A stretch of DNA of 64,000 nt from an uncultured Thermoleophilia bacterium (GCA_963772095.1 CAVYVU010000013.1:39358-103357), one strand, 5' to 3'; shown: positions 28,048 through 48,722, counted from the stretch's first letter. Program-made: numbers and translations. The notes: a model not told the origin generated them from the letters alone.

Positions 28048-29544
28048 TCACCTGCTCACCCCCGGGGCTGGCGAGTCTCGAGCGGCCGCGGGTCGATTCC
28101 TGTAGGCAGCCACGAACATCAAGAACCGCCAGACATCGGAGAACGTGGATGCCAGCCCGAGCGAGACGCGGATAGTGTTGGGCACCTTGCCGGTGGCATC
28201 CTCGATTGCTCTCTGGCACTCTCTCAGGCTCATCGCCATCCGAAGGTCGGGGAAGCAGCGCTGCATGTCTTCCTGGGTAATGTTGTGCGCCACCTCGCCG
28301 GCGCCAGGGTTGCAGAAACATCCAGTGCGGATGGAGATGCGCTGGCGACCGGCGGCCACCTCAACCTCGGAGACGTCGTGCGGCCGACCGCTGGGGTCGA
28401 GAAGATGCAGCGCAATGGTCGCGCCACGACGATCCATGTCAGTCGGCCCAAAGATGCGCACCACTGGCCCGCCCTCGTCATGACGCATGCGCTGCAGCTC
28501 GTCGAGGAGCCAGCCGGTCAGCAAGCGCGTGCGCGTGTGTATGGTTTCAATGCCGACGCGCTCCAGGTGACGTAGCCCGATGGTGACGGCCGGCACACCG
28601 AGATAGTCCACCGTACCATCCTCGAAGCCGGCTGCGCCGGGGGCGAGATGGTACCAGCTCTCGCGCTGGACCGATGCCACCGTGATAGTTCCGCCGGCGA
28701 ACCACGGGCGCCGCAGCTTCGCTAGCTTCTCGCGACGCACGATTAACGCCCCGACGCCGGTCGGATATCCGAACATCTTGTAGAAGGAGAGCACGACGTA
28801 GTCTGGCTTGACTGCCCCCAGATCGAGGCCGTTGGTCGGCACATAGCCAGCACAGTCCAGCAGAACGTCCCAGCCTAGAGACTGTGCTTCGGCGACCCAG
28901 CCCAGCGGATGCTGCACGCCGCTGAAGTTGGACTGGGCCGGATAGGCGAAAAGATGATCCGGTCTCGATCCAGCTTCACGGAGTCCGCTCCTAAGCAGAT
29001 CCTCGTCCAAGCGCAAGTCTGGCATGCGGACGGGCACGTAGTTGACGGCTGCACCTTTCCGGCGTGCGAACTCACGGATGCCGTTCACGGAATTGTGGTT
29101 GTCATAGGTCAAGAGATAGACGGAGCCGGGACGGAACGGGTACGCCTCGCCCACCAGCTTCAGAGCGGCGCTGGCATTGGCGCAGAAGACGACCTCGTAC
29201 TCCTCGGCCGCAGCGTTGAAGTATCGGAGTACGGCGCGGCGCGCCTCGGCGACAAGCTCAGAGGAAGCGGCCGACGCCGGATTGGCGGAATGCGGATTGC
29301 CGAGCACGCGGCCTGCGAGCATGTCGTGATGGCAGCGGAGTTGCGACTCTGCGTACAGCCCGCCGCCCATGTAGTCGAGATACGTGTCGCCGAGCTGATC
29401 GAGACGGCCATAGTCGGTCCTGCGCAGATCGTCGAGCGCCGCCGTGGCCCGATAGTCGGGATAGCGCCGAAGGAACTCCTCCTCGGCGCGCTGGAGATCG
29501 CCGGTCGCATACGGCTTTCGATCGTCAGACGGCACCCGACTCAT
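28048..29544 (-). CDS. Class V PLP enzyme, molybdenum-cofactor-sulfurase/NifS-like
   Basis: YLDYMGGG, LGNPHS, DNHNSVNGIRE, AYPAQSNFSG, PLP Lys in SFYKMFGYPTGVGAL, and RTGCFCNPG. Confidence 0.85.
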   Translation of the reverse strand: MSRVPSDDRKPYATGDLQRAEEEFLRRYPDYRATAALDDLRRTDYGRLDQLGDTYLDYMGGGLYAESQLRCHHDMLAGRVLGNPHSANPASAASSELVAEARRAVLRYFNAAAEEYEVVFCANASAALKLVGEAYPFRPGSVYLLTYDNHNSVNGIREFARRKGAAVNYVPVRMPDLRLDEDLLRSGLREAGSRPDHLFAYPAQSNFSGVQHPLGWVAEAQSLGWDVLLDCAGYVPTNGLDLGAVKPDYVVLSFYKMFGYPTGVGALIVRREKLAKLRRPWFAGGTITVASVQRESWYHLAPGAAGFEDGTVDYLGVPAVTIGLRHLERVGIETIHTRTRLLTGWLLDELQRMRHDEGGPVVRIFGPTDMDRRGATIALHLLDPSGRPHDVSEVEVAAGRQRISIRTGCFCNPGAGEVAHNITQEDMQRCFPDLRMAMSLRECQRAIEDATGKVPNTIRVSLGLASTFSDVWRFLMFVAAYRNRPAAARDSPAPGVSR

Positions 29545-29621
29545 CTGCAACACCTCAGTCCCAGCGGCCATGCATCGAGGGACATCTCGTTGTTGTCTTG
29601 GGTTTCCGGTTTTGCTGCTTA

Positions 29622-30596
29622 TCAATCCATGGGGATGGCAAACAGTGACGCCACCCCGCCGGAATGGAGGAACACGATGGTTTCATCATCATTGAAGTAA
29701 CCTTTGGCGCACAGGTCGAGCAGACCGGCAAAGGTCTTGCCCGTGTATACCGGGTCGAGGAAGATGCCTTCGTTTTCAGCCATCAACCTGATCGCCGCGT
29801 TGCCCTGTTCGGACGGCTTGGAATAGCCCGGGCCGACATAATCTTCCATGACAACATCGTCACGGGTCAGCCGGAGCTCTGTTTCCAGAATCTCGCAGGC
29901 GCCGTTCGCCATATCAAAGACCTGTCCCTGGAAATCTTCTTCCGGCGAGACGATGATGCCGGTGACCTTGGCGCCGTTGCCGAACAGCTTGGCGCCCAGA
30001 ACAATGCCGGCGTGCGTACCGCCGGAACCGGCGCAGCAGACGATATGGTCGATCTTCACATCCTGTGCCACGGCCTGTTCCATCATCTCTTTGATGCAGT
30101 TGACGTAGCCGATGCTGCCCAGCGGTGTGGAGGCGCCCACTGGGATGATGTACGGCTTTTTGCCGGCTACGCGCAGTTCGTCAGAGATGTGTTCAATCTC
30201 GGCGTAGACCTCGTCATAATCGTCGCTGTCCACGAACACGACTTTGACTCCCATCAAATCGTCCAGCAGCAGATTGCCTTTCTTTTCCGTGACGCCGCGT
30301 TGTTTCAATACCAAAATCACATCTAGGCCAAGGCGCTTGCAGCACGCCGCTGTTATCGTCGCATGGTTGGACTGGGCGGCACCGGTAGTGATGATCGTAT
30401 CGCAACCTTTTGCCTTCGCGTCAGCCAGAAGGTATTCCAGTTTCCTGACCTTGTTGCCGCCGAGGGCGACGCCGGTCATGTCGTCTCTCTTGATGTAGAC
30501 CAGTTTGCCGCTGACTTTGCTGATATTGTTCAGCTTATAGAAAGGAGTAGGCAAAATGCCTAACTCTAGCTTGGGGATATCGGCTATATCTTTCAG
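29622..30596 (-). CDS. D-cysteine desulfhydrase / ACC deaminase family PLP enzyme
   Basis: IKRDDMTG..LGGNKVRKLEYL, QSNHA, GSGGTHAG, LDPVYTGK, FLHSGG; the frame extends upstream to a CTG at 30596 (KDIADIPKLELGILPTP). Confidence 0.9.
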   Translation of the reverse strand: MKDIADIPKLELGILPTPFYKLNNISKVSGKLVYIKRDDMTGVALGGNKVRKLEYLLADAKAKGCDTIITTGAAQSNHATITAACCKRLGLDVILVLKQRGVTEKKGNLLLDDLMGVKVVFVDSDDYDEVYAEIEHISDELRVAGKKPYIIPVGASTPLGSIGYVNCIKEMMEQAVAQDVKIDHIVCCAGSGGTHAGIVLGAKLFGNGAKVTGIIVSPEEDFQGQVFDMANGACEILETELRLTRDDVVMEDYVGPGYSKPSEQGNAAIRLMAENEGIFLDPVYTGKTFAGLLDLCAKGYFNDDETIVFLHSGGVASLFAIPMD

Positions 30597-30598
30597 TT

Positions 30599-30760: not shown

Positions 30761-30776
30761 GGGCGCTCGAACGTGT

Positions 30777-31253
30777 CTATAGGGGAACCGCCGGGATCGG
30801 TATCCCCCGTGCCCTCATGAGACAGCAAGGATTGTGGATTTCCCGTAAGCGCTTGATCTTACCGTCCTCCATTTCAAACGAGATGATGTAGTGGTTCTCG
30901 TAGATGCGATTCTGATTCAGGTTCATCTTAAGAATCATCTTGCCCCGACCATCACACTCGACGAAAAACATGTTGGGATTCTGGGTTTGGTAGATCTGCG
31001 CGTTGTAGAAGCCCCAATCGGGAAACATCTCGAAGTCGCCCACGGTGTTCCACTCCACCGCAGCTTTCCCAAAGGGCACACAATCCGCCGTAAAAGTCAG
31101 CTCGAAGGCGGCGTTATCAGCGAACAGCGGCGCGCGCTTGTTCCTGCGTTCCGGTCCTCTTAGGGTCATGTAGTACTCGACGGTCTTGAGGTTCTTTTGG
31201 CGCAGTTGTTCATCTTCCAGGCTCAGCGAGAAGCCAGTTGTTGTTCCAGACAT
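30777..31253 (-). CDS. PhzA/PhzB family protein (copy 1)
   Basis: RQKNLKTVEYYM, FPDWGFYN, PNMFFVECDGRG, YENHYIISFEMEDGKIKRLREIHNP, closely following the PhzB pattern. Confidence 0.88.
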   Translation of the reverse strand: MSGTTTGFSLSLEDEQLRQKNLKTVEYYMTLRGPERRNKRAPLFADNAAFELTFTADCVPFGKAAVEWNTVGDFEMFPDWGFYNAQIYQTQNPNMFFVECDGRGKMILKMNLNQNRIYENHYIISFEMEDGKIKRLREIHNPCCLMRARGIPIPAVPL

Positions 31254-31341: not shown

Positions 31342-32616
31342 TCATAGGACGATGAGTTCCAGTGGGAAATCGCCGAGGATTTGCGGCTCGTCCTCGCGGA
31401 CGATGACAACTCTGGAGGCGTTTAGTGAAACACCGTTTCTTGTGGCCATGTTGTGCCCGATAGCAAGGGAGTGGCCGACCATCAGATCCATGTCTTCCCA
31501 GTCATAGGGGTAGGCGGGTCTGTCGATGGTGTTGATACCGACACCATGGATCTCTGGCAGAAAGACGCCGTGGATGGCGTGGCCTCTGAGCATCGCGTCA
31601 TCGTAGACAAACGGTTCCAAGCCTTTTGACACCTTGAAAGCGTTGATCTTCTGATGAAGCTCCGCGTACTTGGCACCCGGCCTGAGGAGCGAAATCGTGT
31701 AGCACGTCACGTCTTTCGCGTCATCGTATAAGGCTTTGATTTCCTCGCGCGGCTCCTTGAAGAAGAAATAGCGTCTATTGTAGGAGTAGTAGCCGCCGGC
31801 ACCCGGGGATTCAAGCAGCAGTTGCACGATATCGGTATGCTTGAGCCTGTAATCACGCATCAGTTCGATCGTGCTCTCACCTTTGTGATCGCCTCCGACA
31901 CCGCCGATGGGTTCTCCATACTCATCCAGGAAACCGATGATGACCTTGCCGAAAAGGGAAGGATCGGCCCCCCATATCGACAACTGGCGCGTGATATCGC
32001 AATTGATTTCCCAGATTGTGCGGCCGGGATACATGTAGTTGGCGGCGGAAGCAAAGATCTTGTCGTGCAGATGGGTCGCATCGGCGATGCACACGATTTC
32101 CTCTTCGCTTTTGACAGCCTTCATATGCTCGATCTCATTGCTGATGTCGACGATCTCCATGCCTGGGCAAACCGCCGCGAGATAATCGCGAAAGGCGACG
32201 GTGAGGAAGAAGGCGGTCCCGTCGTAGGCAATACGCTTGGCTCCCCTCAGATAGACGCTCATGTCGTCTACACCTGAGTAGGGCTCCCGATCCTTGCGAC
32301 TGTTGCAGGCCTTTACCCCCGGAACTTCAATCAGCTCGCCGTTCGCCGGCAGAATCAATGTCATCGTGTTGCGGAAGCCGTTGAACCCGCTCAGCCAGTA
32401 CATCGTTGACTGGCTCGCAAAGGTGGCTGTGGGGAACCAGCATTGGGCAATCAACAGGTCACAATCCAGCTCCTTGAGCTTCGCCCGTACGAGATCCTGC
32501 CGCCTTCGTATTTCCGCTTCGGAAAAGGGCGCCACATAGGGGACGATGATGCCTCTTTCCATGTTGCCAAAGACGAGCATGTTCGGCCATCTGGCGCCAT
32601 TGAACGTCTCGAGCAT
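31342..32616 (-). CDS. M24 (creatinase/Xaa-Pro peptidase fold) protein, paralog 1
   Basis: Creatinase-N motif FSEAEIRRRQ, KAVKSEEEI, PGRTIWEI, GGYYSYNRR, LRPG, IHGVG; start at 32616 after AGGGAGG. Confidence 0.8.
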   Translation of the reverse strand: MLETFNGARWPNMLVFGNMERGIIVPYVAPFSEAEIRRRQDLVRAKLKELDCDLLIAQCWFPTATFASQSTMYWLSGFNGFRNTMTLILPANGELIEVPGVKACNSRKDREPYSGVDDMSVYLRGAKRIAYDGTAFFLTVAFRDYLAAVCPGMEIVDISNEIEHMKAVKSEEEIVCIADATHLHDKIFASAANYMYPGRTIWEINCDITRQLSIWGADPSLFGKVIIGFLDEYGEPIGGVGGDHKGESTIELMRDYRLKHTDIVQLLLESPGAGGYYSYNRRYFFFKEPREEIKALYDDAKDVTCYTISLLRPGAKYAELHQKINAFKVSKGLEPFVYDDAMLRGHAIHGVFLPEIHGVGINTIDRPAYPYDWEDMDLMVGHSLAIGHNMATRNGVSLNASRVVIVREDEPQILGDFPLELIVL

Positions 32617-32726
32617 CTTCCCCTCCCTTACCTGCCAAGCTGTGCTTTGCGCCGCTCTCAAGTTTCTTCAACCATGGAAGGAAATCCGTTCACCGACCGA
32701 CTGAGCGAGGACGCGGTTTGGAGAGT

Positions 32727-32763
32727 GATCAGTTCGGACTGTCATCGATCAGTTCAGACTGTC
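32727..32763. repeat. 17-bp direct repeat with 20-bp period upstream of M24 paralog 1
   Basis: GATCAGTTCGGACTGTC (32727-32743) and GATCAGTTCAGACTGTC (32747-32763), 16 of 17 identical. Confidence 0.8.
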
Positions 32764-32811: not shown

Positions 32812-33306
32812 TCAGAAGCCTTCAGGGATTTCCGCGTCACCACCTGGCCGCATGCAATTGTAGGGATTAAAGACTTCCCGCAAACGCTTAATCTTTCCGT
32901 CCTTCAAAGTGAAGCTGAGCAGATAGTGATTCTCGTAGTAGTGCGGGTCGTCCCATCTAGGGTCGTACCTCATCCCCCTGCCCCGTAGTTCCGCAAACAC
33001 GGTCCATGGATCGTCGGTCGGGAAGATAGTGACATCATAAAAGCCCCAGTCAGGAAAGGCAGAATTCTCCCCTCGTGCAACGTCCGCCTCTCTCTCATCA
33101 TTGACACGGTATGCAAAATTCGGGTTATCGTGCGGACCGCCGCAGAACGTAAGCTCGAATCTGCCGTCGGTGTCATACAGAGCTTTGCGCTTTTCATGAC
33201 GGTCTGGCCCTTCCAGTTTGACAAAGGCCTCCACAGCCGCCACGTTAGCCAGCCTCTGTTCTTCCAGTTCCTCGCTAAGACAGAAGGGCCCGTACTTGTC
33301 AGACAT
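32812..33306 (-). CDS. PhzA/PhzB family protein (copy 2)
   Basis: RLANVAAVEAFV, FPDWGFYD, TDDPWTVFAELRGRG, YYENHYLLSFTLKDGKIKRLREVFNP. Confidence 0.88.
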   Translation of the reverse strand: MSDKYGPFCLSEELEEQRLANVAAVEAFVKLEGPDRHEKRKALYDTDGRFELTFCGGPHDNPNFAYRVNDEREADVARGENSAFPDWGFYDVTIFPTDDPWTVFAELRGRGMRYDPRWDDPHYYENHYLLSFTLKDGKIKRLREVFNPYNCMRPGGDAEIPEGF

Positions 33307-33322: not shown

Positions 33323-33802
33323 CTACATGACGCGATCGGGCGCAGGGTTCCAGAAAGCCTGATCGAGCTTCATCGGATTCATGAACTCTTTCATTGACTT
33401 GATTCTTCCATCCACTACTACAAACAGAATGAAGAAATGGTTGTCATATTCATGTGGGTCCGTGAACATAGGATTCTTCATCAGACCCTGGCCGTCGCAC
33501 TCTGCGATGAATCTTTCTGGGCTTGGTGTCCTGTAAATCGTTACATTGGAATAGCCAAAATCAGCCCACTTCTTCTGAAGTCTCAACATCTTTTCGCGTA
33601 GAGCCTTTTTGCCCACGGTACGTTCCGGCAAGCAAGATCTCGTGGAGCAAATCTCGCGCATTCCGTCATCGGCAAACAAGCCGAGCCGTTCCTCGATTCG
33701 ATCGGGACCTTTCAAGGCCATGTATTCTTCCACGGTCTTTCGGTTTCTCTCTTGGAGAGACAAGGCTTCGTCGTTCGGACACGCAGCGAGGTTTACAGAC
33801 AC
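33323..33802 (-). CDS. PhzA/PhzB family protein (copy 3)
   Basis: ERNRKTVEEYMALKGPDR, FIAECDGQG, YDNHFFILF..VDGRIKSMKEFMNP; GTG start after AAGGAGG. Confidence 0.88.
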   Translation of the reverse strand: MSVNLAACPNDEALSLQERNRKTVEEYMALKGPDRIEERLGLFADDGMREICSTRSCLPERTVGKKALREKMLRLQKKWADFGYSNVTIYRTPSPERFIAECDGQGLMKNPMFTDPHEYDNHFFILFVVVDGRIKSMKEFMNPMKLDQAFWNPAPDRVM

Positions 33803-33987: not shown

Positions 33988-34677
33988 TCAGAGTGACGCC
34001 CGAAATCTTTCCAGCCCGTTCCGCCAGTGTTCTTCGGTCGCCTTACTTGCGGCGTCCGGATTGTGGTTTCTAAGCGCCTCCAGGATCCGCTCGTGCTCTA
34101 CGATAGATTGAGCAGATGAAGCGCCCCGACCATAGAAGTAGCGGGTGAAACGCGCTCCAAATCGGTCGAGTCGCTTCGCGGCGTCCGCAAGATACTGGTT
34201 CCCGGTCGAGTCCACCACAACCTCATGAAACCGCAGGTCCAGCTTGACCAGAAGATCAAGGTCCAGTCTCTCGACGGCGGACTTGGCCTCCGTGATAATC
34301 GCTTCAATCTCGCCGACTCCATCATCAGTGATCCTCGCGGCGGCGAGTGTCGCGGCAAAGGGTTCGAGCACTTCCAGACATTCAACAGCCATGCCGTACT
34401 CGGAGATATCGAGCCCAGCGACCGTCGTCCCCATCCCGGGTACCCGCTTGACCAGATACTCTTGGGCCAGAAGAAGTAAAGCCTCCCGCAGAGGAGTCCT
34501 CCCGACGCCGAGTTGTTCCGCTAATTGACCTTCGCTAACGATGGTTCCTGGTGGAAGCTCACTACTGACGATCATCGACCTGACGGACTCGAGGACGTCT
34601 TTTGACCGACGAGCCATCCTTTGACGAGACGGAGCTGAACCCACATGAGACGAAAGCGTTTTGGCCATGGCCATCAC
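33988..34677 (-). CDS. GntR family regulator (FCD domain), paralog 1
   Basis: SEGQLAEQLGVGRTPLREAL HTH; DLRFH...GNQYL...EHERILEAL. Confidence 0.92.
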   Translation of the reverse strand: MMAMAKTLSSHVGSAPSRQRMARRSKDVLESVRSMIVSSELPPGTIVSEGQLAEQLGVGRTPLREALLLLAQEYLVKRVPGMGTTVAGLDISEYGMAVECLEVLEPFAATLAAARITDDGVGEIEAIITEAKSAVERLDLDLLVKLDLRFHEVVVDSTGNQYLADAAKRLDRFGARFTRYFYGRGASSAQSIVEHERILEALRNHNPDAASKATEEHWRNGLERFRASL

Positions 34678-34700: not shown

Positions 34701-34743
34701 CGCTGCGGTCTCCCTGCTCTGCCAGGGCAGGGAGACCGCAGCG
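34701..34743. terminator. Very stable hairpin downstream of the substrate-binding protein gene
   Basis: Perfect 17-bp arms CGCTGCGGTCTCCCTGC / GCAGGGAGACCGCAGCG; no U-tract, so it could be an mRNA-stabilising element. Confidence 0.7.
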
Positions 34744-34795: not shown

Positions 34796-36511
34796 CTATG
34801 CCTTGATCCAAAGGTTCCTGGTATCCGCGTAGGTAACAATGGGTACGGGTTGGGCGCCCCCGATCTTCTGGCTGTATGCGTCCACTTGATCGGCGTCGAC
34901 CGGGACGACCACCGAGCCGCGATCGTAGATGATCACCTGCATCTGGTGGAACAGGTCTTTACGCTTGGCCGGGTCGGCTTCCGCGCGGGCTTGACTGAAC
35001 AGTGAATTGAACTCCGTGTCGTTGAAGTGTGTGGAGTTGTACGGAGAGTCGGGCAGGAAGCTGAGCGCATACTGTACCGAAAGAGTCTGGGCCGGCCAGA
35101 AGCTGGTCGACGTTTGCCGATTCTTGTACTCCGGACCAAAGTACACCGAGGGATCGAGCTTGTTGACCGTCATCTTGATGCCGGCCGCCTGAGCCTGTTG
35201 AGCATAGGCGGTCGCCAGATCCACGATACTTGGGGCGGTGTTGGCAGTGTTCAGTGCGATCGCAGTCGAGCCTTTGCCTGATTTCTGCATGAGAGACTTC
35301 GCTTGGTCAGGGTCGTAGGCACGCTGGGGCAGGTCGGAAGCATAGTTGGGGTCTGCGGGTCCCGGCATAAGATCGTTGGCCACTTGTGCGTGCCCGGCAA
35401 ATACCTGGTCGACCAACTGCTGACGGTTTGCGGCAAACCTGCACGCCTGGCGGACCTGCGGGTCGGTAAAGGGCTCCTTCTGCACGTTCATGTTGATGGA
35501 GTAGACCGTCGGCGTGTGATACGCGACTACCTGCAGGGACTTGTTGGCCTGGACCACAGCGACCTGCGAGAGGTCGAGGTTGGTTAGGACGTCGACCTGC
35601 CCGCCGACGAGAGCGTTGATCCGCGCGGTGTCGTCAGCGAAGGAGTAGACCACCATGCCGTCAGCATAAGGCTTGCCTTGATCCCAGAATCCATCGTACC
35701 TGGAGAGAGTGGCCTTACTCCCGGGGGCGAAAGTGTCCATTTTGAATGGCCCGGTGCCCACGGGCTTGGCAGGATCGAAGTCCGTCGGGACGATGAACAC
35801 CTGCCACAGCCCTTCGTTCATCATGCTGTCCGGGCTCTTCAGGCGAAAGCGCACAGTCCGGTCGTCGACCTTGTCGATCGCGTTGGGGTCGACCGCGTTG
35901 AGGATGCCCGAGGTGAAGGACCCTTTCGTGAGGGCGCGCTTGAACGAGAAGATGACGTCATCCGCGGTGACTGGCTTACCGTTGTGGAAGGTAACCCCCT
36001 GCCGGAGCCGAGCGATCCAACTGGAAGGATTCTCCATCGTGACTTCTTCCGCCAGTGCCAGCTGAAAAGCGAGCGAGCTCTCGACGGGAGGCGGGGCCAG
36101 CAGCTGGTCGTACATCGAGAATATGAGAGTATTCGCCGTCATGGTCGACGCGATGTTGTTCGGGTCCGCCGTGTCCGCGCTGTTGCCTATGCACCCGATG
36201 AGAAGCTGACCGCCTTTGACAGGGCCGGCGGCCGCGGCCGTCGTGGTTGGACCCGCAGCGGTCGTGGTAGGACCGGCACCAGTCGTCGTGGGGCCGGCGG
36301 TGACAGTCGTCGGCGCCCCGGTGGTAGTTGTCGTTCCCGCGTTTCCACAGCCGGCTAGAAAACCCGCGCCGCCAAGCCCGAGAGCCACCGCGCCAGCGCC
36401 AGCAAGCCGCAAGAATTCCCGGCGCGAAGTCTGGCGGACTAGAAAGCTCTGGTCTACTGTTTCTTCCTCCTGATCCTGCCTTTTGTCGAGATGTGTGGGG
36501 TCTGTACTCAT
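34796..36511 (-). CDS. ABC transporter substrate-binding lipoprotein (DppA/NikA family 5), Tat-exported
   Basis: SRREFL twin-Arg and lipobox LAGC; GPTTT 7-residue repeat linker; LRQGVTFHNGKPVTADDVIFS, GTGPF, DPQVRQA. Confidence 0.92.
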   Translation of the reverse strand: MSTDPTHLDKRQDQEEETVDQSFLVRQTSRREFLRLAGAGAVALGLGGAGFLAGCGNAGTTTTTGAPTTVTAGPTTTGAGPTTTAAGPTTTAAAAGPVKGGQLLIGCIGNSADTADPNNIASTMTANTLIFSMYDQLLAPPPVESSLAFQLALAEEVTMENPSSWIARLRQGVTFHNGKPVTADDVIFSFKRALTKGSFTSGILNAVDPNAIDKVDDRTVRFRLKSPDSMMNEGLWQVFIVPTDFDPAKPVGTGPFKMDTFAPGSKATLSRYDGFWDQGKPYADGMVVYSFADDTARINALVGGQVDVLTNLDLSQVAVVQANKSLQVVAYHTPTVYSINMNVQKEPFTDPQVRQACRFAANRQQLVDQVFAGHAQVANDLMPGPADPNYASDLPQRAYDPDQAKSLMQKSGKGSTAIALNTANTAPSIVDLATAYAQQAQAAGIKMTVNKLDPSVYFGPEYKNRQTSTSFWPAQTLSVQYALSFLPDSPYNSTHFNDTEFNSLFSQARAEADPAKRKDLFHQMQVIIYDRGSVVVPVDADQVDAYSQKIGGAQPVPIVTYADTRNLWIKA

Positions 36512-36790: not shown

Positions 36791-37342
36791 CTAGGTCCTC
36801 TCGGCCGATTCCGCCGCGACTGCTGCAGCTGCCTCTCCAATGGCGATGTCCCAGTTCCGCATGTCGCCGTCAAAAGAAGCCCGCGTGATGTCACCGTTGA
36901 AGTACTCGGAAAAACGCGAGATCTTATCTCCCTCGACCTCCATGAAGACCACGTAGTCGTTGGAGTAGACGTTGCCTTTGCTCGGGCCGAGCAACACCTG
37001 GTTCCAACTCTTGCTCTTGTAGACAAAGAGCGCTGGGTTCTCAGTGGTGTGCATCTCAAGCCAGAGACAATCGTGATTGCCAAAGACACGCATGACCTTG
37101 TAGTACTCTTCCTTGATGGCTTCAGGGCCGATCTTCTGCATGCCGTCGTGTCGGTAGGGTGTCTCGAGGATCCCATCGGGAGTCATCATGTCGGCAAAGC
37201 CATCGACGTCAAACCGATGCCAGCGCTCCAGGAATCGGATGCAAACATCAAGATTCTTGCGTCGCTCAGGATCTAGGGGTCCGATTGTGCTCGGGATTGC
37301 CTGGAAATCGGTTGACAGTGGTTCTTTGTGGCTGCTCTTCAC
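36791..37342 (-). CDS. SnoaL/NTF2-like protein (PhzA/B-related), tandem copy A
   Basis: RKNLDVCIRFL, ADMMTPDGILETP, VYSNDYVVFMEVEGDKISRFSEYFN. Confidence 0.82.
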   Translation of the reverse strand: MKSSHKEPLSTDFQAIPSTIGPLDPERRKNLDVCIRFLERWHRFDVDGFADMMTPDGILETPYRHDGMQKIGPEAIKEEYYKVMRVFGNHDCLWLEMHTTENPALFVYKSKSWNQVLLGPSKGNVYSNDYVVFMEVEGDKISRFSEYFNGDITRASFDGDMRNWDIAIGEAAAAVAAESAERT

Positions 37343-37915: not shown

Positions 37916-38030
37916 TTGACTACACCTCCTCAGGGATTCCGAGATTCCCAACCGCCTTCCCAGCCCACGGAAGGTGGTGCGCGCTCTTCTCCGATCGTGT
38001 CGCTGACGTTCATGACTGCTTTATCCGTTC

Positions 38031-40789: not shown

Positions 40790-41832
40790 CGAAGCCCGGT
40801 CCTTACGCGCGGATTCACCAGCACCGCCAAAACGTCGGCGGCCAGAGTTGCCAGCACATAGACGCCTGCGATAGAAACTGTAAGGATCTGTGCAACCGGC
40901 AAGTCGCGATACTGAATTGCGCTGAAGAGCGACGAACCGATTCCTGGGTAGGAAAAGACCGTCTCGACCGCCACCGCTCCGCCGGCCAGGTAGCCTATTT
41001 GAAGTGCCACCACTTGGGCTGTCGGAGCGACCACGTTGGGAAGTCCGTGCTGCAAGATGACTCTCCACTCGGGTATCCCGTTGAGCCGGGCCTGGGTGAC
41101 GTACGGGCTATCGAGCGCCTCGATCATCGCGCCTCGGATCATATAGGCGACATACGGGAACACGCCCACGCCCAAGGAAACTGCGGGCAATAGCACCAAC
41201 GAGAACTGACTCCAGATACTTTTCGCCGGGTCGATGAGCGACACCGGTGGTAGTAGATGGACGACGCTGGTGGCAAAGACGATGATGAGGGTGAGCCCGG
41301 TGACGAAAGGCGGAATGGCTGTCATGACGAGCCCTACGCCCGACACGAGCCGATCGAGTATGCCACCTCGTCGGACCGCGCATGCTATCCCAACCAACAG
41401 AGCCAGGGGGATCGACAAGAGACAGGCGACCAGCATAAGAGCGAGCGTGTTGCGAACGCGCGGGCCCAGATAGGTGCTCACCGGTTGTCTGTTGGCCAAG
41501 GACGTACCGAGGTTGCCCGTCACGACCCCGCCTATCCAAGAGACGTATTGAACGGCAACCGGGCGGTTCAGACCCAACTGCTGACGCAGCAGTTGCACCT
41601 GTTCTGGTGTGGCGTTCTGGCCCAAGATCGCCCGTGCCGTGTCACCCGGAAGACCCTGGGTGGCAAAGAAGACGAGCAACGTAACAACCCACAGGATGAT
41701 CACCGCGTAGAGACACCGAAACAGAATAAGCCGGGCGAACGGCAATCTGCGTCCGCGCTCGGCCGAACGGCCCTCAGATAGCTCCTCTAGAACTGAGGAA
41801 CCGTCGCCAACCGGTCCGGCTTCGATAGCCAT
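40786..41832 (-). CDS. Peptide ABC permease (DppB-like)
   Basis: LPGDTARAILG, GLNRP..VQY..W...GNLGTS, YVTQARLNG...HGLPN, VETVFSYPGIG. Confidence 0.92.
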   Translation of the reverse strand: MAIEAGPVGDGSSVLEELSEGRSAERGRRLPFARLILFRCLYAVIILWVVTLLVFFATQGLPGDTARAILGQNATPEQVQLLRQQLGLNRPVAVQYVSWIGGVVTGNLGTSLANRQPVSTYLGPRVRNTLALMLVACLLSIPLALLVGIACAVRRGGILDRLVSGVGLVMTAIPPFVTGLTLIIVFATSVVHLLPPVSLIDPAKSIWSQFSLVLLPAVSLGVGVFPYVAYMIRGAMIEALDSPYVTQARLNGIPEWRVILQHGLPNVVAPTAQVVALQIGYLAGGAVAVETVFSYPGIGSSLFSAIQYRDLPVAQILTVSIAGVYVLATLAADVLAVLVNPRVRTGLR

Positions 41833-42253: not shown

Positions 42254-43858
42254 ATGGGAACCGAGACCACGCCCTTCAGGAATGAGCCTCCCGTCGACTT
42301 CTCGCTTGAGTCGAGTCGCCAAGCGATGGCTGAAGCACTCGACGTCAGACGCAGACACCTTGGGGGCCATCACCCCCTGATCGTGGACGGCAAAGACGTG
42401 ACCAGCCTTACATCAACCACCTCGGTGAACCCTGCGCATGCCCGTCAGATCATCGGAACGGTATCAGCGGCTGGCCCGAGAGAGGTCGACGCCGCCTTGA
42501 ACGTTGCGCGACAGGCTTTTTCTGCATGGCGCGATACGCTGCCCAGCGAGCGGGCCACCATCATGTTCAAGGCCGCCGCCATCATGCGAGCGCGACGCTT
42601 TCAGCTCTCTGCGCTTCTGGTGCTCGAGGCCGGGAAGCCGTGGATCGAGGCCGACGCGGACACGTGTGAGGCCATTGATTTCCTCGAGTACTACGCTCGC
42701 GAGATGCTTCGTCTTGAAAGACCTTCGCGCCTCGGCCGTGACTCTGCTGAGAGGGGTTTCTACTTCTACGAGCCTCGCGGCGTGGCCGTCGTCATCGCTC
42801 CGTGGAATTTCCCGCTGGCGATTGCCACCGGAATGACGTCGGCGGCTCTTGTGACCGGCAACACGGTCGTCTTCAAGCCTGCCTCTCCCACTTCCGTCTT
42901 GGGCGCCGAGATGGTTCACATATTTCATGAAGCGGGCGTGCCCGTCTCTGCTCTGAGCTTCCTTCCGTGTGTGGGGAAGGACACTGGCGCGATGCTGGTG
43001 CGAGATCCCCGGGTCGACCTGATTGCCTTCACCGGGAGCCTAGAGGTGGGTCTGTTCATCCTCCGCGAAGCCGGCTTGGTGCGCCCAGGGCAGCGCAGCA
43101 TCAAGAAAGTGGTCGCCGAGATGGGCGGCAAGAACGCAATCATCGTAGACTCAGACGCAGACCTCGATTCAGCCGCGGCGGGAGTCGTACGCTCGGCCTT
43201 CTTCTACTCGGGGCAAAAGTGCTCAGCCTGTAGTCGCGTAATCGTCCACGAGGCCGTTTACAAACCGTTTCTAGAGCGCCTGCTGGATCAGACCTCCTCC
43301 CTCGCAGTGGGCGACCCAGCCGACCAAGGGACGCAAGTAGGCCCCGTAATTTCTGCAGAAGCGCGCAGCAAGATCCTCGCGTACATCGAGAGAGGGAAGG
43401 GGGAGGCGCGGCTGGTCCTTCCGTCCAATGGCGAAGAGCCGCAATCGGACGGTTTCTTTGTACGACCCCATGTCTTTGTCGACGTCTCCCGGGGCGCGAC
43501 GATTGCTCAAGAGGAGATCTTTGGTCCTGTCCTAGCCGTATTCAAGACCGCGGACTTCGATCAGGCGCTCGAGTTGGCGCTGAGCGTGCCCTACGCACTA
43601 ACAGGGGGAGTCTACTCGCGGGATCCGCACAATCTTCGGAGAGCTTTCCGTGAGTTCCGGGTGGGCAATCTCTATATCAACCGCCATATCACTGGAGCCT
43701 TGGTCGGGCTTCACCCCTTCGGTGGCTCGCGAATGAGCGGTGTAGGGTCAAAGGCCGGCGGTCCAGACTACTTGCTCCAGTTCCTTGAACCTCGAGTGGT
43801 TACCGAGAGCCTCACGGACATCGACATGGACTTGGTCGGAAGCCTCTATTCTGCCTGA
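42254..43858 (+). CDS. pruA: L-glutamate gamma-semialdehyde (P5C) dehydrogenase, stand-alone RocA/PruA type
   Basis: FRNEP, EADADTCEAIDFLEYY, PWNFPLAI, AEMGGKN, GQKCSACSR, EEIFGP, GSKAGGPDYL; no proline dehydrogenase domain. Confidence 0.88.
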   Translation: MGTETTPFRNEPPVDFSLESSRQAMAEALDVRRRHLGGHHPLIVDGKDVTSLTSTTSVNPAHARQIIGTVSAAGPREVDAALNVARQAFSAWRDTLPSERATIMFKAAAIMRARRFQLSALLVLEAGKPWIEADADTCEAIDFLEYYAREMLRLERPSRLGRDSAERGFYFYEPRGVAVVIAPWNFPLAIATGMTSAALVTGNTVVFKPASPTSVLGAEMVHIFHEAGVPVSALSFLPCVGKDTGAMLVRDPRVDLIAFTGSLEVGLFILREAGLVRPGQRSIKKVVAEMGGKNAIIVDSDADLDSAAAGVVRSAFFYSGQKCSACSRVIVHEAVYKPFLERLLDQTSSLAVGDPADQGTQVGPVISAEARSKILAYIERGKGEARLVLPSNGEEPQSDGFFVRPHVFVDVSRGATIAQEEIFGPVLAVFKTADFDQALELALSVPYALTGGVYSRDPHNLRRAFREFRVGNLYINRHITGALVGLHPFGGSRMSGVGSKAGGPDYLLQFLEPRVVTESLTDIDMDLVGSLYSA

Positions 43859-43934: not shown

Positions 43935-45317
43935 ATGAGCCGGACAGCCGAAGCTCGGCCCCGAGCGACCGCCGATCTTGCGCACCACGAAATCGTTCGG
44001 ACCTGGTGGCCGCTAGCTGGCAGCTGGCTCCTGATGAGCATTGAAGGCCCGGCGATGGCCGCCATCATCGCCCGCCTTGCTCACCCCGAAATAAACCTTG
44101 CAGCATACGGCGGTCTGGTCTTTCCCATCGCCGTGTTGATCGAGGCCCCCATAATGATGATCTTGGCTGCCTCCACAGCCCTGAGCCGTGATTGGCTATG
44201 CTACGCAAAGCTGCGTAGGTTCACGCATGTACTTGGGGCTGGTCTGACAGCGATTCACGTAATCCTGGTGGCCACGCCTGTGTACTACTTTGTGGCCCGA
44301 GGGCTGGTACACGCGCCCGAGGAGATCATCAGACCCGCGCGGCTGGGTCTTCTCATCGTGATCCCCTGGACGTGGTCGATCGCCTACCGCCGCTTCGGCC
44401 AGGGAGTCCTCATCCGCCTTCGCCGTTCCATCTGGGTAGGCACAGGAACCGTGATAAGACTGGCAGCTGAAGTCGCGGTTCTAGCCGTAGGGTACGCCAT
44501 CGGCTCGCTTGCCGGCGTAGCGGTTGCAGCCCTGGCCATGAATGCGGGAGTGATGAGTGAAGCACTCTTTGTCTTCATTGTCCTACGGAAACCGCTGAAG
44601 ACTGAATTGAAGCCCGCACCTATACTTCAGCGGCCGTTCACCACGCGGGAGCTCATACGCTTCTACGTCCCACTCGCCTTGACATCGACGATAGCGCAGA
44701 TCTGCGCCCCTATCGGCAGCGCGGCCATAAGCCGCATGCCCAGAGCTCTCGACTCTTTGGCAACGTGGCCGGTGGTGAGCGCGATGAGACTCCTGGCGAG
44801 CAGCCCGGGTCTTGCTTACAACGAAACCGTAGTAGCCCTCGTTGAGCGACCGAAATCATCTCAAAGGCTATGGAGATTCAGTCTCACCCTGAGTGCGTTC
44901 GCCACGGCCGGTCTCGTATTGCTCATCACTCCACCAGTGGCGAACCTCGTATTCAAGAGCCTCCTTCATCTACCTCCAGCGGTTGCCCTACTTAGCCATC
45001 GCAGCCTGTGGTTCCTCTTGCCGATGCCGACGATCGCGGTACTTCAAAGTTGGTATCAGGGCGTAATCCTACACAGCGGAAGGACGCGGAGCATCATCGA
45101 ATCGGTTCTGCTCTTCACGGTGGTCATCGCCAGTTTCCTGGCTGCTGGGGTGAGTTGGGGGATCTTCACCGGTATATACGTGGCAGCAGGAACGTTCACA
45201 GTTGGCGATATCGTGCGGACGGTATGGCTGTGGATCCGCAGCAGAAGTGCCCGCCGATCACTCGCGGCCAGAGATTCGGAAACGATCGAGGCTGTTGATT
45301 CGGCCGCCGCGAGCTGA
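43935..45317 (+). CDS. MATE/MOP-superfamily (ANKH-like) membrane transporter
   Basis: WWPLAGSWLLMSIEGP..AAIIARL..PEINLAAYG; two-fold internal symmetry (FYVPLALT...ISRMP...LATW); about 12 TM segments. Confidence 0.65.
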   Translation: MSRTAEARPRATADLAHHEIVRTWWPLAGSWLLMSIEGPAMAAIIARLAHPEINLAAYGGLVFPIAVLIEAPIMMILAASTALSRDWLCYAKLRRFTHVLGAGLTAIHVILVATPVYYFVARGLVHAPEEIIRPARLGLLIVIPWTWSIAYRRFGQGVLIRLRRSIWVGTGTVIRLAAEVAVLAVGYAIGSLAGVAVAALAMNAGVMSEALFVFIVLRKPLKTELKPAPILQRPFTTRELIRFYVPLALTSTIAQICAPIGSAAISRMPRALDSLATWPVVSAMRLLASSPGLAYNETVVALVERPKSSQRLWRFSLTLSAFATAGLVLLITPPVANLVFKSLLHLPPAVALLSHRSLWFLLPMPTIAVLQSWYQGVILHSGRTRSIIESVLLFTVVIASFLAAGVSWGIFTGIYVAAGTFTVGDIVRTVWLWIRSRSARRSLAARDSETIEAVDSAAAS

Positions 45318-45398: not shown

Positions 45399-46238
45399 TC
45401 AACTATCCTGCCCCTTGGAAAACGAGCTCGCCTCCTGTAGGTGTCGACTTCGCTCCATGGCCGCTTCAACCGCGTGTTGAAAGGCGTCCCGAACTTCTCG
45501 GTCTATCAATACTTCCATCCCCGCGCTATCTACCTCAGAATGCGAGGTCGTCTGTTCAATGAGTTCAGCCGGAGACTCCGAGTAAGCCGACAGCAGTTGC
45601 GCGGTGGTGACCGCTGTCTGTCGCACAAAAGCACGGGCCATGGCTCTCGGCAAACCTACCGCGACAGCTCCGTCTTCAAGGCTCTCGAGGGCGAGCGCGA
45701 GAAAACCGGGACCTGTTCCAGACACAGCCGTGACGGCGTCCAGCATCTTCTCCGGTACTACCTCACAAATGCCCAGGGCGTCGAACAGACCAATCACACT
45801 CTGCATGTCAACATCCGGCGTGTTGGGTTCAGAAGAGAGGGCCACGACACCGACTCCGAGTTCCACCCCTAGGTTTGGCATGATCCGGTAGAGAGCAGGT
45901 CCCGGGCCGATGGTCTTCCGAAGCCATTTCAGGTGGACCCCGGCCATTGACGAGACTATGGTCTGATCCTTTCGCACGAATGGAGCTACAGCAGTCAGAA
46001 CGCCGAGTGCATCCTTAGGCTTTACGACCACGAACAGAACATCTACATTTCTTACCAGATCTTCGAGGGAGCGAGCCAGCGACACGGGGCCAGGAGTAAG
46101 CAGCCGAAAGGCCGACTCTTTGATCTTATCCCAAACGAGTATTTCCAGGCCTGGCTCCGGCGCACGAAGCCAGCCCTTGACCAAGGCGGAGCCCATGTTG
46201 CCGGTACCTATGACTCCGAGGGTCATTCCCATAATCAT
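45399..46238 (-). CDS. proC: Pyrroline-5-carboxylate reductase-like protein (divergent C-terminus)
   Basis: IGTGNMGSA, VVKP, SSMAGV, RIMPN, DAVTAVSGTGPG, EDGAVAVGLPR. Confidence 0.82.
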   Translation of the reverse strand: MIMGMTLGVIGTGNMGSALVKGWLRAPEPGLEILVWDKIKESAFRLLTPGPVSLARSLEDLVRNVDVLFVVVKPKDALGVLTAVAPFVRKDQTIVSSMAGVHLKWLRKTIGPGPALYRIMPNLGVELGVGVVALSSEPNTPDVDMQSVIGLFDALGICEVVPEKMLDAVTAVSGTGPGFLALALESLEDGAVAVGLPRAMARAFVRQTAVTTAQLLSAYSESPAELIEQTTSHSEVDSAGMEVLIDREVRDAFQHAVEAAMERSRHLQEASSFSKGQDS

Positions 46239-46433: not shown

Positions 46434-47123
46434 TCAAAGACCGGCCCAGAGTCTTCCCAGAGCGTTGTGCCAGTGGTCGAAGGCCACCCTTTCCGCCTCG
46501 TCCGGTGAATGGCTTCTGAGGGCTTCTAGGATGCGCTCGTGCTCGCCAATAGAGGGCATCGTCGGAACGCCACGGCCGTAAGCAAAACGCCAAAAGCGAA
46601 CCGAATAGCGGTTCAAGCGCATTGCCGCATCCCGGAGGTACTTGTTTTGAGTAGCAGCCAGGACTGCCTCGTGAAAGCGTAGATTCAGCAGAGCAGCCTG
46701 GTCTACATCCCCCGCTTCGGCAGCGGATCTCTCCGCGTTCAAGATCGACTCGATCTCCCCCAACTCAGCCTCGGTGATCCGTACTGCAGCCAGTCTCGCC
46801 GCAAAAGGCTCCAGACCCTCTTGACACTCCGAGATGAGCGCATAATCGGCGATGTCGAGCCCCGCGACAGTGCTTCCCATGCCTGGGATTTGTTTGATCA
46901 AATACTCCTGCGCGAGAACGAGCAGGGCTTCCCTTAATGGAGTCCTGCCGACGCCGAGTTGCTTGGCAAGCTGACTCTCACTCACGACGGCACCGGGTGG
47001 CAGCTCGAAACTCACGATCATGGACCTAATGGTCTCCACCAAGTCTGTCGACTGGCGAGCCATCCGGCGCCGTGGCATGGGCCGGTTTGTTTGCGACGAT
47101 CCAGCCTCGGACAATGTCACCAC
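46434..47123 (-). CDS. GntR family regulator (FCD domain), paralog 2
   Basis: SESQLAKQLGVGRTPLREAL; NLRFH...EHERILEAL; closely similar to 33988..34677; start uncertain. Confidence 0.92.
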   Translation of the reverse strand: MVTLSEAGSSQTNRPMPRRRMARQSTDLVETIRSMIVSFELPPGAVVSESQLAKQLGVGRTPLREALLVLAQEYLIKQIPGMGSTVAGLDIADYALISECQEGLEPFAARLAAVRITEAELGEIESILNAERSAAEAGDVDQAALLNLRFHEAVLAATQNKYLRDAAMRLNRYSVRFWRFAYGRGVPTMPSIGEHERILEALRSHSPDEAERVAFDHWHNALGRLWAGL

Positions 47124-47441
47124 TCCTCATTGGCTCAAGCGCGAACGAGATAAAATGCTTCAGACCAAGCCAACTGTGCTACCCGCACACGCGAACTCAC
47201 GGCTACACGGGCAAAGGCTAGCCCAAGTGACCCCGAGCCAACGAATGTTCCGGGACCAGAATGATACCCGAAGTATACCGTCATCAATGCGCGAGATATT
47301 CTCCAAGTATTTTCGACTTGATTTGGCTCGTTGCTTCCGCTCCAGCGACTGATCGAGTACGTGGGTCGAGAACTGGGCAAGTCCATCTGCGACGAGACCT
47401 ACTCCGATTGGCCTCTATGAATCAAACCAACCCTCGGCGTT

Positions 47442-48722
47442 CTACAGAACGATAAGTTCCATCGGGAAGCTGCCGAGAACAAGGGGTTCGTCCTCCTTGA
47501 TAATGCAAGTCTTCTGGGCATTGGCCGACCTAGCCCCTTGGCGAACCTCGCCACCACCATAAATGACCACAGAATGACCGGGTTCTAACACGATGTCTTC
47601 CCAAGAGAACTGCGGCTGCGGCCGGTCGATTGTATTGATGCCAATGCCGGAAATCTCGCCGAGGAAGCAGCCGTGTATCAGGTTTTCCCTGTCTTTTTCG
47701 GGAGTTGTGACCAGGGGCTCAAACCCATGGTCAACTTTGTAAAGGTTGACCTTCTTGTGGATGTCGGCCCCCGTGGCACCAGGACGCAGTAGAGACGCCG
47801 TATAGTAAAGCATCTCCACCGCTTCATCCCACACTTCCCTGATCTCCGGATGGGGTTCGCTGAAGAAGAAATTACGACCATTGGTGGCGTAGTAGCCACC
47901 ACTGCCCTGGGCTTCCAACATTAGGCCGACATAGTCGTCCTCTCCGAGACGGTAGTTCGGGTCGTCTGCAAAGCGCGTGCTGACCCCCGCATTCGCGCTG
48001 GACGTTTCGTCATCGGCGCTGAACGCCGCGTTGCGGCCGAAGCCGACCAGAACCTTTCCCATCAGCGTGGGGTCGGCGCCCCACAGCACCATCTGTCGGG
48101 TGATATCCGCTGTGATTTCCCAGAACGCGCGGCCGGGATGGAGGTAGTTAGCGGCGCTGGCGAATACCCTCTCCTGAATGGCCACAGCATCTGCTATCAG
48201 TTCAATCTCCTCATCGCTCTTGACCGCCTTCATGTGCTCGATTTCATTACTGAAATCAATGATCTCCACCCTGGGCGCCGTCTCCTCTAGATACTGTTTG
48301 AAAGCAGCCGTCAAATACCCCAAGCCATCATAGGCAATACGTTTGGCGCCTTTGATGTGTGTACGCATGTCCACGACCCCGGTGTAGGGGTCCCGGCTCT
48401 TCAGATTGCAGCAGGCCTTGACCCCTGGGATTTCGGCGAGTTCGCCGTCCACGGGGAGGATTAACGTCATGGTATTCCGGTAGCCGTTGTAGCCGCCCAA
48501 CCAGTACAGAGAAGAATGGCAGCCGAAAGTCGCAGTGGGGAACCAGCCCTGGGCAATCAACAGGTCACAGTCCATTTCCCTGAGTTTGGCGCGAACCAGA
48601 GTATGGCGACGTTCAATTTCCTCCTTCGAAAACCGCGAGATGCCGGTGTGTCCGAAGGGCTTATCGTTCGCCAGATGGAAGATCATATTCGGCCATCTTC
48701 GGGCATCAAACAATTCGAACAT
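47442..48722 (-). CDS. M24 (creatinase/Xaa-Pro peptidase fold) protein, paralog 2
   Basis: FSKEEIERRH, KAVKSDEEI, GGYYATNGR, LRPG; colinear with 31342..32616 (shared RWPNM, WFPTATF, FRNTMT/YRNTMT, INTIDRP). Confidence 0.8.
   Translation of the reverse strand: MFELFDARRWPNMIFHLANDKPFGHTGISRFSKEEIERRHTLVRAKLREMDCDLLIAQGWFPTATFGCHSSLYWLGGYNGYRNTMTLILPVDGELAEIPGVKACCNLKSRDPYTGVVDMRTHIKGAKRIAYDGLGYLTAAFKQYLEETAPRVEIIDFSNEIEHMKAVKSDEEIELIADAVAIQERVFASAANYLHPGRAFWEITADITRQMVLWGADPTLMGKVLVGFGRNAAFSADDETSSANAGVSTRFADDPNYRLGEDDYVGLMLEAQGSGGYYATNGRNFFFSEPHPEIREVWDEAVEMLYYTASLLRPGATGADIHKKVNLYKVDHGFEPLVTTPEKDRENLIHGCFLGEISGIGINTIDRPQPQFSWEDIVLEPGHSVVIYGGGEVRQGARSANAQKTCIIKEDEPLVLGSFPMELIVL

Follow-up and report, generated by a model that had tools for sequence, protein, structure and literature searches.

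Gene content of the island

A 64,000-nucleotide stretch of DNA from an uncultured Thermoleophilia bacterium (GCA_963772095.1 CAVYVU010000013.1:39358-103357; hereafter the window) carries, at 28-49 kb, 19 uninterrupted genes, of which 17 are located on the minus strand (ORF, i.e. open reading frame, listing and translations). The genes are closely packed or overlap. The genes considered in most detail below are those for (i) three PhzA/B-like proteins (PhzAB1, PhzAB2 and PhzAB3), (ii) two creatinase-like proteins of the M24 fold (M24a and M24b), which share 52% identity, and (iii) a homologue of the Δ1-pyrroline-5-carboxylate (P5C) reductase ProC. They are accompanied by genes of a Dpp/Opp-type ABC importer, a stand-alone P5C dehydrogenase (P5CDH), two SnoaL_2 proteins, two pyridoxal phosphate (PLP) enzymes, two GntR/FCD regulators and a transporter of the MOP superfamily (Table 1).

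Genes were assigned to families by comparing Pfam, NCBIfam and TIGRFAM profile scores with the cut-offs of the models, and functions were predicted from sequence, predicted structure and gene neighbourhood only. The host genome is a 2.7-Mb metagenome-assembled genome (MAG) that is 66% complete, and this bounds all negative results obtained within it. An earlier reading of this DNA, made without database searches (the sequence-only reading), had listed the genes summarized above; all of them are present where it had placed them, with unbroken ORFs, and their families were confirmed by the profile searches.

Table 1. Features of the island, with positions counted from the first nucleotide of the window
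Feature	Position	Strand	Evidence and remarks
Class V aminotransferase-fold PLP enzyme	28048..29625	-	PF00266 115.7 bits; probable start ~29541
PLP enzyme, D-cysteine desulfhydrase/ACC deaminase family (PALP fold)	29622..30554	-	TIGR01275 316.6 > 289.4
PhzA/B-like protein 1 (PhzAB1, orthogroup 1)	30777..31253	-	PF03284 113.7 bits; directly downstream of M24a
M24a, creatinase-like two-domain pita-bread protein	31342..32616	-	Creatinase_N + M24; listed as 31342-32661, real start ~32616
Direct repeat of 17 nt, GACAGTCYGAACTGATC, in two exact copies with a distance of 20 nt	32727..32763	-	Upstream of M24a
PhzA/B-like protein 2 (PhzAB2, orthogroup 2)	32812..33306	-	PF03284 74.6 bits
PhzA/B-like protein 3 (PhzAB3, orthogroup 3)	33323..33802	-	PF03284 94.1 bits
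GntR/FCD regulator 1	33988..34677	-	PF00392 + PF07729
Hairpin, 21-nt arms, 95% complementary	34701..34743	.	After binding-protein gene, between transporter operon and regulator 1
Tat-signal lipoprotein, family-5 solute-binding protein (SBP_bac_5) of ABC importer	34796..36511	-	PF00496 251 bits
SnoaL_2 (NTF2-like) protein 1	36791..37342	-	PF12680 35.8 bits (cut-off 27)
SnoaL_2 (NTF2-like) protein 2	37373..37951	-	PF12680 35.6 bits (cut-off 27); probable real start ~37915
Fused double ATPase, Dpp/Opp-type ABC importer	38031..39926	-	ABC_tran x2 + oligo_HPY; NF008453 443 bits
ABC permease, DppC type	39923..40789	-	PF00528 111 bits
ABC permease, DppB type	40786..41832	-	PF00528 + PF19300
Stand-alone L-glutamate gamma-semialdehyde (P5C) dehydrogenase	42254..43858	+	NF002852 663.8 > 648
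MOP-superfamily (MATE/MurJ/ANKH-like) 12-helix transporter	43935..45317	+	AlphaFold model + Foldseek
P5C-reductase-like NAD(P)H oxidoreductase (ProC-like)	45399..46238	-	TIGR00112 192.2 < 196.75
GntR/FCD regulator 2	46434..47123	-	Pfam
M24b, creatinase-like pita-bread protein	47442..48722	-	Creatinase_N + M24; model + Foldseek

Recurrence of the M24 and PhzA/B genes in other genomes

Homologues were searched for in a collection of 5.8 billion proteins, which yielded 10 homologues of PhzAB1 and approx. 20 of M24a. The loci compared (numbered with the prefix L) came from the contigs of these homologues, from seven loci of named genomes recognized by M24 peptide patterns, and from one further contig; a scan of genome contigs with PhzA/B peptide patterns gave no confirmed locus. 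In all 12 loci with enough flanking DNA (L001, L003, L014, L015, L019, L020, L022, L025/L035, L026, L028, L029 and L039), from one to seven PhzA/B-like genes were found within approx. 6 kb of the M24 gene; L017, L027 and L031, which end at a contig edge, were left out of this count. A lack of conserved co-occurrence in other genomes would have refuted the sequence-only reading; the M24-PhzA/B core recurs in 12 independent loci, and the reading clearly withstands this test. The M24 gene is adjoined by a ProC homologue in L003, L022, L026, L027, L028 and L029.

These loci span Bacillota, Actinomycetota and metagenome contigs of anaerobes. Their hosts include the Lachnospiraceae isolate genome MGYG-HGUT-00127, Catenibacillus scindens DSM 106146, MAGs of Oscillospiraceae and other Clostridia, and a Microbacterium MAG. 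The minimal modules of the Firmicutes consist of four genes plus a transporter of the uptake type. In L014 and L039 the gene order is nearly gene-for-gene that of the window. The L014 copy (ENA contig_17439, 850-14516) encodes proteins 85-97% identical to those of the island and an additional SerA-like 2-hydroxyacid dehydrogenase (2-Hacid_dh); its permease, ATPase, M24a and PALP genes are in pieces, and these breaks could represent either indel errors of long reads or decay. An expanded module was observed in L019 (ENA contig_120589, 2639-12927), which contains seven PhzA/B-like ORFs (one of them a fragment), two genes for SnoaL_2 proteins, both types of M24, two Amidohydro_2 genes and a cupin gene, and adjoins a 2-oxoacid:ferredoxin oxidoreductase (OFOR).

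The genes that surround the core vary. The transporters differ by locus (Dpp ABC, GPH-type MFS_2, CUT1 sugar-type ABC, Gate-domain protein or MATE/MOP), as do the regulators (GntR, MarR, LysR or PucR). The dedicated peptide-type importer emphasized in the sequence-only reading is therefore present in the window, yet it is not a conserved feature, since the homologous modules carry GPH-family MFS_2, CUT1 ABC, Gate-domain or MATE proteins instead. The downstream partners are a PLP lyase and a class V enzyme in the window, a 2-Hacid_dh and a PLP lyase in L014, Aminotran_1_2 in L039 and Aminotran_4 in L003. A 2-Hacid_dh gene is also found in L015, OFOR genes in L003 and L019, aldolase genes in L003 and L015, and CoA-transferase genes among L003, L015 and L019. 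This variable set of amino-group and 2-oxoacid enzymes fits a product that enters central metabolism as an amino acid of the glutamate/proline family.

Of 401 genomes sampled from the phylum, only 8 contain a match to the PhzA/B family model PF03284, and no match was obtained in 14 controls. With a family so rare, the linkage with M24 cannot be due to chance. The M24 family itself is very small: an exhaustive profile search of 1.84 billion representative proteins gave eight 50%-identity clusters scoring >400 bits, with the next matches at <200 bits. Among 401 sampled Lachnospiraceae it was present in a single genome, the query itself, and it was detected in none of 40 relatives of the window genome (2 of the same genus, 22 of the same family and 16 of the same class). 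In congeners, the genes flanking the island lie on different contigs or in another order, and the island DNA is missing. The absence of M24 from these relatives and the non-collinearity of the flanks indicate that the island (approx. 27.4-49.2 kb) is accessory; it was probably acquired horizontally.

Properties of the encoded proteins

The three window genes are the only ones in the host genome that match PF03284 (cut-off 24 bits). PhzAB1 could be aligned end to end with PhzB2 of P. aeruginosa (PDB 3ff0; E=2.3e-28) and with Burkholderia PhzA/B (E=4.7e-23). As with PhzA and PhzB (PDB 3ff0, 3b4o), the family model is passed by each of the three proteins. The counterparts of E140, R38 and R41 (Burkholderia numbering), i.e. 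of the catalytic Glu and the two Arg that bind the substrate carboxylate, are retained in PhzAB1 and are invariant across the M24-associated PhzA/B homologues. In contrast, the H73/S77 pair is replaced: PhzAB1 has N68 and D72 at these positions, and neither PhzAB2 nor PhzAB3 has a His. A maximum-likelihood tree placed the three proteins in separate orthogroups (SH-aLRT 98, 96 and 97 for orthogroups 1, 2 and 3, respectively), each with members in other islands, and the true PhzA/B proteins were nested within a wider radiation of M24-associated proteins, the deeper branches of which are unresolved. PhzAB3 adjoins PhzAB2 in each related island (L014, L015, L019 and L039), and this adjacency suggests that the two proteins may form a heterodimer.

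To our knowledge, the only function of PhzA/B that has been characterized is the ring-forming condensation step of phenazine biosynthesis. Unlike the genes of that pathway, those of the window have no phzC, phzD, phzE, phzF or phzG nearby, and their steady partners are M24 and a ProC homologue within an uptake-type operon; no phzE, phzD, phzF or phzG was found in the window, with no search being directed at PhzG. The phenazine-related homologues of the genome are scattered on other contigs (numbered with the prefix C). On C14 (79293-81588), the single gene of the PhzF family is flanked by a creatininase-family (PF02633) gene on one side and a hypothetical ORF on the other; an MFS gene is located two ORFs further on, and no other phz genes are near. 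This PhzF-creatininase-MFS group is a separate small unit. The isochorismatase-family genes (C16, C4 and C28) and the chorismate-binding genes (C17) are not neighbours. No complete phz operon was found elsewhere in this incomplete genome. The island makes no phenazines, and the placement of the cluster outside phenazine synthesis in the sequence-only reading is borne out. In one region of C16 (262390-269831), two isochorismatase-family genes lie a few kb from a gene whose product is distantly homologous to M24 (25% identity to M24b), and this may be another amidohydrolase cluster.

Orthologues of M24a with 85-93% identity are present in L003, L014 and L039; of the two paralogues, M24b is the one that most resembles the versions found in Firmicutes and Microbacterium. 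The predicted structure of M24b (pLDDT 82.7) matched, in Foldseek, creatinase (top match 1kp0), prolidases and EutD, with 15-20% identity and TM scores of approx. 0.6, and the best PDB match of the profile of the M24 family was creatinase 7yto (E=3.8e-17). The five metal-ligand positions of the fold were judged by eye from an alignment to the metallopeptidase PepE (4ege). The two Asp, the His and the two Glu are replaced by L, T, S, Y and Q, respectively, in M24b (5/5), and correspond to L, Y, H, G and S in M24a, in which only the His is kept (4/5 replaced). The Firmicute members have Arg at the position of the ligand His, as does creatinase. Homologues of the island M24 proteins carry the source annotation "Xaa-Pro aminopeptidase", and they resemble prolidases and Xaa-Pro aminopeptidases (M24B) in fold, in domain order and in the linkage of their genes to those for ProC and P5CDH; they differ from these enzymes in the replacement of the ligands, so that M24a and M24b are not metallopeptidases.

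With creatinase (PDB 7yto, 1chm, 1kp0) the island proteins share the Creatinase_N domain, the pita-bread domain and the absence of a dinuclear metal site. They differ from it in overall sequence (approx. 19% identity) and at the positions of His232 and Glu262, the catalytic residues of creatinase (a numbering consistent with the alignment): in the profile alignment to 7yto the former is located within a loop that is variable and of low confidence, the latter at a non-conserved position. The family has an invariant polar set of its own, comprising the E of LExPGxGGYY, several Arg, Asp and Lys residues and the motif T(I/V)DRP. Against the EutD/DoeA model TIGR02993 (cut-off 613), M24b scored 26.7 bits and M24a gave no match. 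On these sequence comparisons, the island proteins form a new metal-free branch of the fold, nearest to creatinase and not themselves creatinases. The nearest sister M24 family (P0044; L034, Logan ERR15157050 contig, 2239-3429) also has an LExxGPGGYY motif; it was considered as a clue to function and set aside, its gene adjoining those for a URO-D-type methyltransferase and an RpiR regulator, not PhzA/B.

The sequence-only reading had assigned imine redox enzymes to the island. The P5CDH part of this assignment stands, with one model passed (Table 1) and a second, TIGR01237, giving 655.7 against 659.65. The ProC-like protein is divergent, as had been claimed, and lies just below the cut-off of TIGR00112 (192.2 against 196.75); its substrate loop departs from the pattern (S/C)SPGG(S/T)T, having TTSHSEVDSAG in place of CSPGGST in the alignment. 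The loop of the L003 homologue is also non-canonical. The Firmicute ProC homologues, in contrast, retain CSPGGST, and the L022 copy (the one tested) passed TIGR00112 with 270.6 bits. With a canonical ProC, the product in the Firmicute versions is most simply P5C, converted to proline. The window protein is the sole ProC homologue found in the genome. The P5CDH gene is transcribed divergently from the ABC operon. A C-terminal P5CDH-like fragment at C16:365892-367491, 55% identical to the island copy over 191 aa and adjoining a heliorhodopsin gene, is probably a gene remnant.

The 460-aa ORF at 43935-45317 had no significant Pfam match and no match to MatE, and the ANKH match passes for the L003 orthologue only. 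Its AlphaFold model (pLDDT 89.8) was matched by Foldseek to MATE, MurJ and Wzx with probability 1.00 and TM scores of 0.55-0.71, so that the former label of "MATE/ANKH-like" is correct as far as membership of the MOP superfamily goes. Orthologues are co-located in L003 and L039, and the island protein is a specialized paralogue of a widespread family. A 56% identical paralogue is encoded at C16:75013-76398, and the wider family has >2,600 members, some annotated as Anaerolineales. The C16 paralogue was of no use as a pathway clue: it is surrounded by housekeeping-like genes (HisG, aconitase-like, ICL/PEP-mutase, Iso_dh) that show no link to the pathway.

Among the remaining genes, that for the solute-binding protein encodes a twin-arginine motif (SRREFLRL) followed by a lipobox (LAGC). 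Its PDB relatives (NikA, GsiB, AgaA, AccA, DppA) are generic and allow no ligand class to be inferred. The SnoaL_2 proteins are 71% identical to each other and accompany the ABC genes in L014, L019 and L039; a search of their PDB relatives gave nothing informative. The two GntR/FCD regulators are 58% identical. The D-cysteine desulfhydrase/ACC deaminase-family enzyme, which does not reach the CuyA-like model (349 < 450) and is also encoded in L014, is an accessory amino-group-removing step. The gene of the class V aminotransferase-fold protein overlaps the stop of this upstream PLP gene by 4 nt. The class V protein scores below every cysteine-desulfurase cut-off and was not found in the related islands L014, L039 and L003; it is a peripheral part of the island.

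Several listed N-termini are too long, the real starts of the ATPase, P5CDH and MOP transporter genes being near 39923, 42254 and 43935, respectively. In the region 29622-30600, the PALP gene runs in frame upstream of the listed TTG, where it encodes a family-typical N-terminus (KDIADIPKLELGI) preceded by GGAAGGA, which resembles a ribosome-binding site. Since this upstream frame has no ATG, GTG or TTG, the true start is probably a different codon near 30590 (CTG or ATA). The 17-nt direct repeat upstream of M24a (2 matches against 0.02 expected by chance) occurs nowhere else in the window and may be an operator; a search for an operator shared by the island promoters gave this one local repeat only. 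The hairpin at 34701-34743 is a likely terminator of the transporter operon.

Possible function of the island

Our tentative explanation, for which the chances seem to us somewhat short of even, is that the island serves catabolism or salvage, and that an imported nitrogen compound is converted to a P5C-like product and then to proline or glutamate. Its core would be formed by the metal-free creatinase-like M24 proteins, the PhzA/B-type NTF2 proteins (probable homo- or heterodimers) and the oxidoreductase of the P5C-reductase type. The following steps can be envisaged, largely by analogy: (i) the Tat-lipoprotein ABC importer would bring in a carboxylate-bearing nitrogen compound; (ii) M24a and M24b would perform a metal-independent C-N cleavage, possibly of an amidine-, guanidine- or iminium-type bond in an N-substituted alpha-amino-acid skeleton, by analogy with creatinase and ectoine hydrolase; (iii) the PhzA/B-like and SnoaL-like proteins, with a catalytic Glu and two carboxylate-binding Arg, might form or hydrolyze an imine, or tautomerize an amino-oxo acid, to give P5C or a close analogue; (iv) the ring might be reduced by the ProC-like enzyme or, alternatively, the open-chain semialdehyde might be oxidized by P5CDH to glutamate, a flux deduced from the genes; (v) lineage-specific PLP enzymes, 2-hydroxyacid dehydrogenases and 2-oxoacid oxidoreductases would channel the product to central metabolism; and (vi) the MOP-family transporter would possibly export a by-product.

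Catabolism is supported by the uptake systems (the importer dependent on a solute-binding protein in the window, GPH symporters or CUT1 ABC systems elsewhere) and by the GntR, MarR, LysR and PucR regulators. The flow to glutamate that had been suggested earlier is plausible: P5CDH is present, and the related islands swap transaminases, 2-hydroxyacid dehydrogenases and 2-oxoacid:ferredoxin oxidoreductases. We know of no metal-free relatives of M24 other than creatinase and EutD. The amide hydrolysis proposed in the sequence-only reading is doubtful for a metal-free M24 protein, because the known metal-free relatives cleave C-N bonds of amidines or guanidines. Lactams, pyrrolines and diketopiperazines, the substrate classes named in that reading, are candidates.

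All of the parts come from known superfamilies, and a substrate-inducible catabolic island is a familiar type. The combination has, as had been supposed, no described counterpart: no pathway with this gene set was found in the literature searched, nor anything linking PhzA/B-like proteins with M24 or ProC, and the Catenibacillus genome paper does not mention the locus. Opinion is, in our judgement, evenly poised on whether the core of M24, PhzA/B and ProC is an undescribed route that degrades a natural N-heterocycle or amidine-type metabolite without a known catabolic pathway, or salvages proline or glutamate from it. If it is, the PhzA/B proteins of phenazine synthesis would represent one biosynthetic offshoot of a family that is otherwise catabolic. 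The hosts described here are anaerobes without phenazine synthesis, and in their operons, which are of the uptake type, the PhzA/B proteins are fixed partners of a metal-free M24 protein and a reductase of the proline pathway; such an association speaks for new chemistry in two well-studied folds and for a nutrient or metabolite hitherto unrecognized. The module occurs in gut Firmicutes and on metagenome contigs; in Firmicutes it is small (four to five genes) and it is present in a cultured strain, C. scindens DSM 106146, in which the PhzA/B, ProC and M24 genes adjoin a MATE gene. Given the rarity and patchiness of the family, its ecological role is probably a niche one.

Several points weigh against a catabolic route of this kind. 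The transporter types imply conflicting classes of substrate (peptide, glycoside and sugar). MATE/MOP genes, whose products are usually exporters, adjoin in the window, L003, L039 and L028, which would also fit biosynthesis. The ProC-like protein of the window lacks the loop that binds P5C or proline and, being the sole ProC homologue in an incomplete genome, may act on another imine or be a housekeeping enzyme. As the catalytic His and Glu of creatinase are not conserved, the chemistry of M24 may differ from that of every known relative. In Microbacterium, M24 is followed by a gene of the nitroreductase family, not by ProC. Finally, both the type of substrate and the enzyme activities proposed here are predictions.

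The alternative that survives best, which we nevertheless consider unlikely, is the salvage of hydroxyproline (Hyp) or proline conjugates derived from collagen or plant glycoproteins. In this case M24 would free the imino acid, and the NTF2-fold PhzA/B and SnoaL proteins, working as dehydratases or isomerases in the manner of scytalone dehydratase or BaiE, would yield a pyrroline carboxylate, which ProC or P5CDH would convert to proline or glutamate. M24B enzymes and creatinase are generally known to release N-alkyl amino acids, the importer is of the Dpp type, the glycoside-type transporters would suit Hyp-O-glycosides, and the Firmicute ProC proteins have the canonical loop, with the L022 copy passing its model. 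In L015, moreover, the M24 and PhzA/B genes adjoin an AcnX pair that scores highest, with 310 bits, against cis-3-hydroxy-L-proline dehydratase, together with a glycyl-radical enzyme best matching HypD (590 bits), three RraA-like aldolases and a glyoxylate-reductase-like 2-Hacid_dh. These AcnX and glycyl-radical enzyme scores are, however, far under the cut-offs (700 and 1100, respectively) and come from a single locus. The loss of all or nearly all of the metal ligands makes peptide-bond hydrolysis by M24 unlikely, the conserved core has no glycosidase, and the Glu and two Arg of the PhzA/B type suggest imine chemistry rather than dehydration.

We consider it slightly less probable still that the island degrades an ectoine-like compatible solute (a cyclic amidine or imino acid) in a manner analogous to eut/doe, with M24 opening the ring and a PLP enzyme, an imine reductase, an aldehyde dehydrogenase and a transaminase completing the route. 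The inventory does parallel the ectoine cluster (eutABCDE-ssd-atf; EutD/DoeA, PDB 6twk/6yo9), which has an M24-fold hydrolase (eutD), often in two copies, a PALP-fold enzyme (eutB), a cyclic-imine reductase (eutC), an aldehyde dehydrogenase (ssd), a transaminase (atf), a GntR or PucR regulator and an uptake system, and EutD is among the best structural matches of M24b. In Gram-positive and Thermodesulfobacteriota species, putative ectoine clusters frequently combine two eutD homologues with PucR regulators and with MFS transporters (PMC13188858). The differences lie in the enzymes themselves: M24a and M24b reach at most 26.7 bits against the ectoine hydrolase cut-off of 613, the island reductase is of the ProC and not the OCD type, no EutE-type deacetylase was found in the island, and the aldehyde dehydrogenase is of the P5CDH type (C5 chemistry), not of the aspartate- or succinate-semialdehyde type. 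Moreover, nothing in eut/doe clusters corresponds to the PhzA/B proteins, and the five NTF2-fold proteins of the island are left unmatched. Creatine, ectoine, Hyp peptides or glycosides, Amadori compounds, betalains or mycosporines, dipicolinate and thioproline were each considered as the substrate, and none is supported beyond analogy.

The biosynthesis and export of a small N-heterocycle appears improbable, and less likely than catabolism. The PhzA/B-like proteins would then condense amino-aldehydes or amino-ketones (e.g. from P5C or glutamate semialdehyde) into a pyrazine- or phenazine-like product, exported by the MOP/MATE protein. The sole characterized PhzA/B function is indeed a biosynthetic condensation, the true PhzA/B proteins nest in the same radiation, and MOP/MATE genes adjoin in the four loci named above. 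What tells against biosynthesis is the presence of importers dependent on binding proteins or of GPH symporters (even the minimal Firmicute modules carry an uptake-type transporter next to their four genes), and the absence of scaffold-forming enzymes of the PhzE/D/F type and of oxidizing (PhzG, at which no search was directed) or tailoring enzymes. The regulators are of the catabolic type, and P5CDH, the variable transaminases and OFOR are degradative.

A chance juxtaposition of unrelated genes in a variable region, to which the rearranged, accessory surroundings of the island and the non-conserved class V aminotransferase and PLP lyase might point, is highly improbable and runs counter to the neighbourhood data: genes for M24 and for the rare PhzA/B family occur together in every informative locus across phyla, three PhzA/B orthogroups are kept together, and the genes are tightly spaced or overlapping.

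Outside the island, at 52000-56000 of the window, we observed approx. 4 kb of DNA with 73% G+C and an AT skew of approx. +0.4, values far from the window mean.

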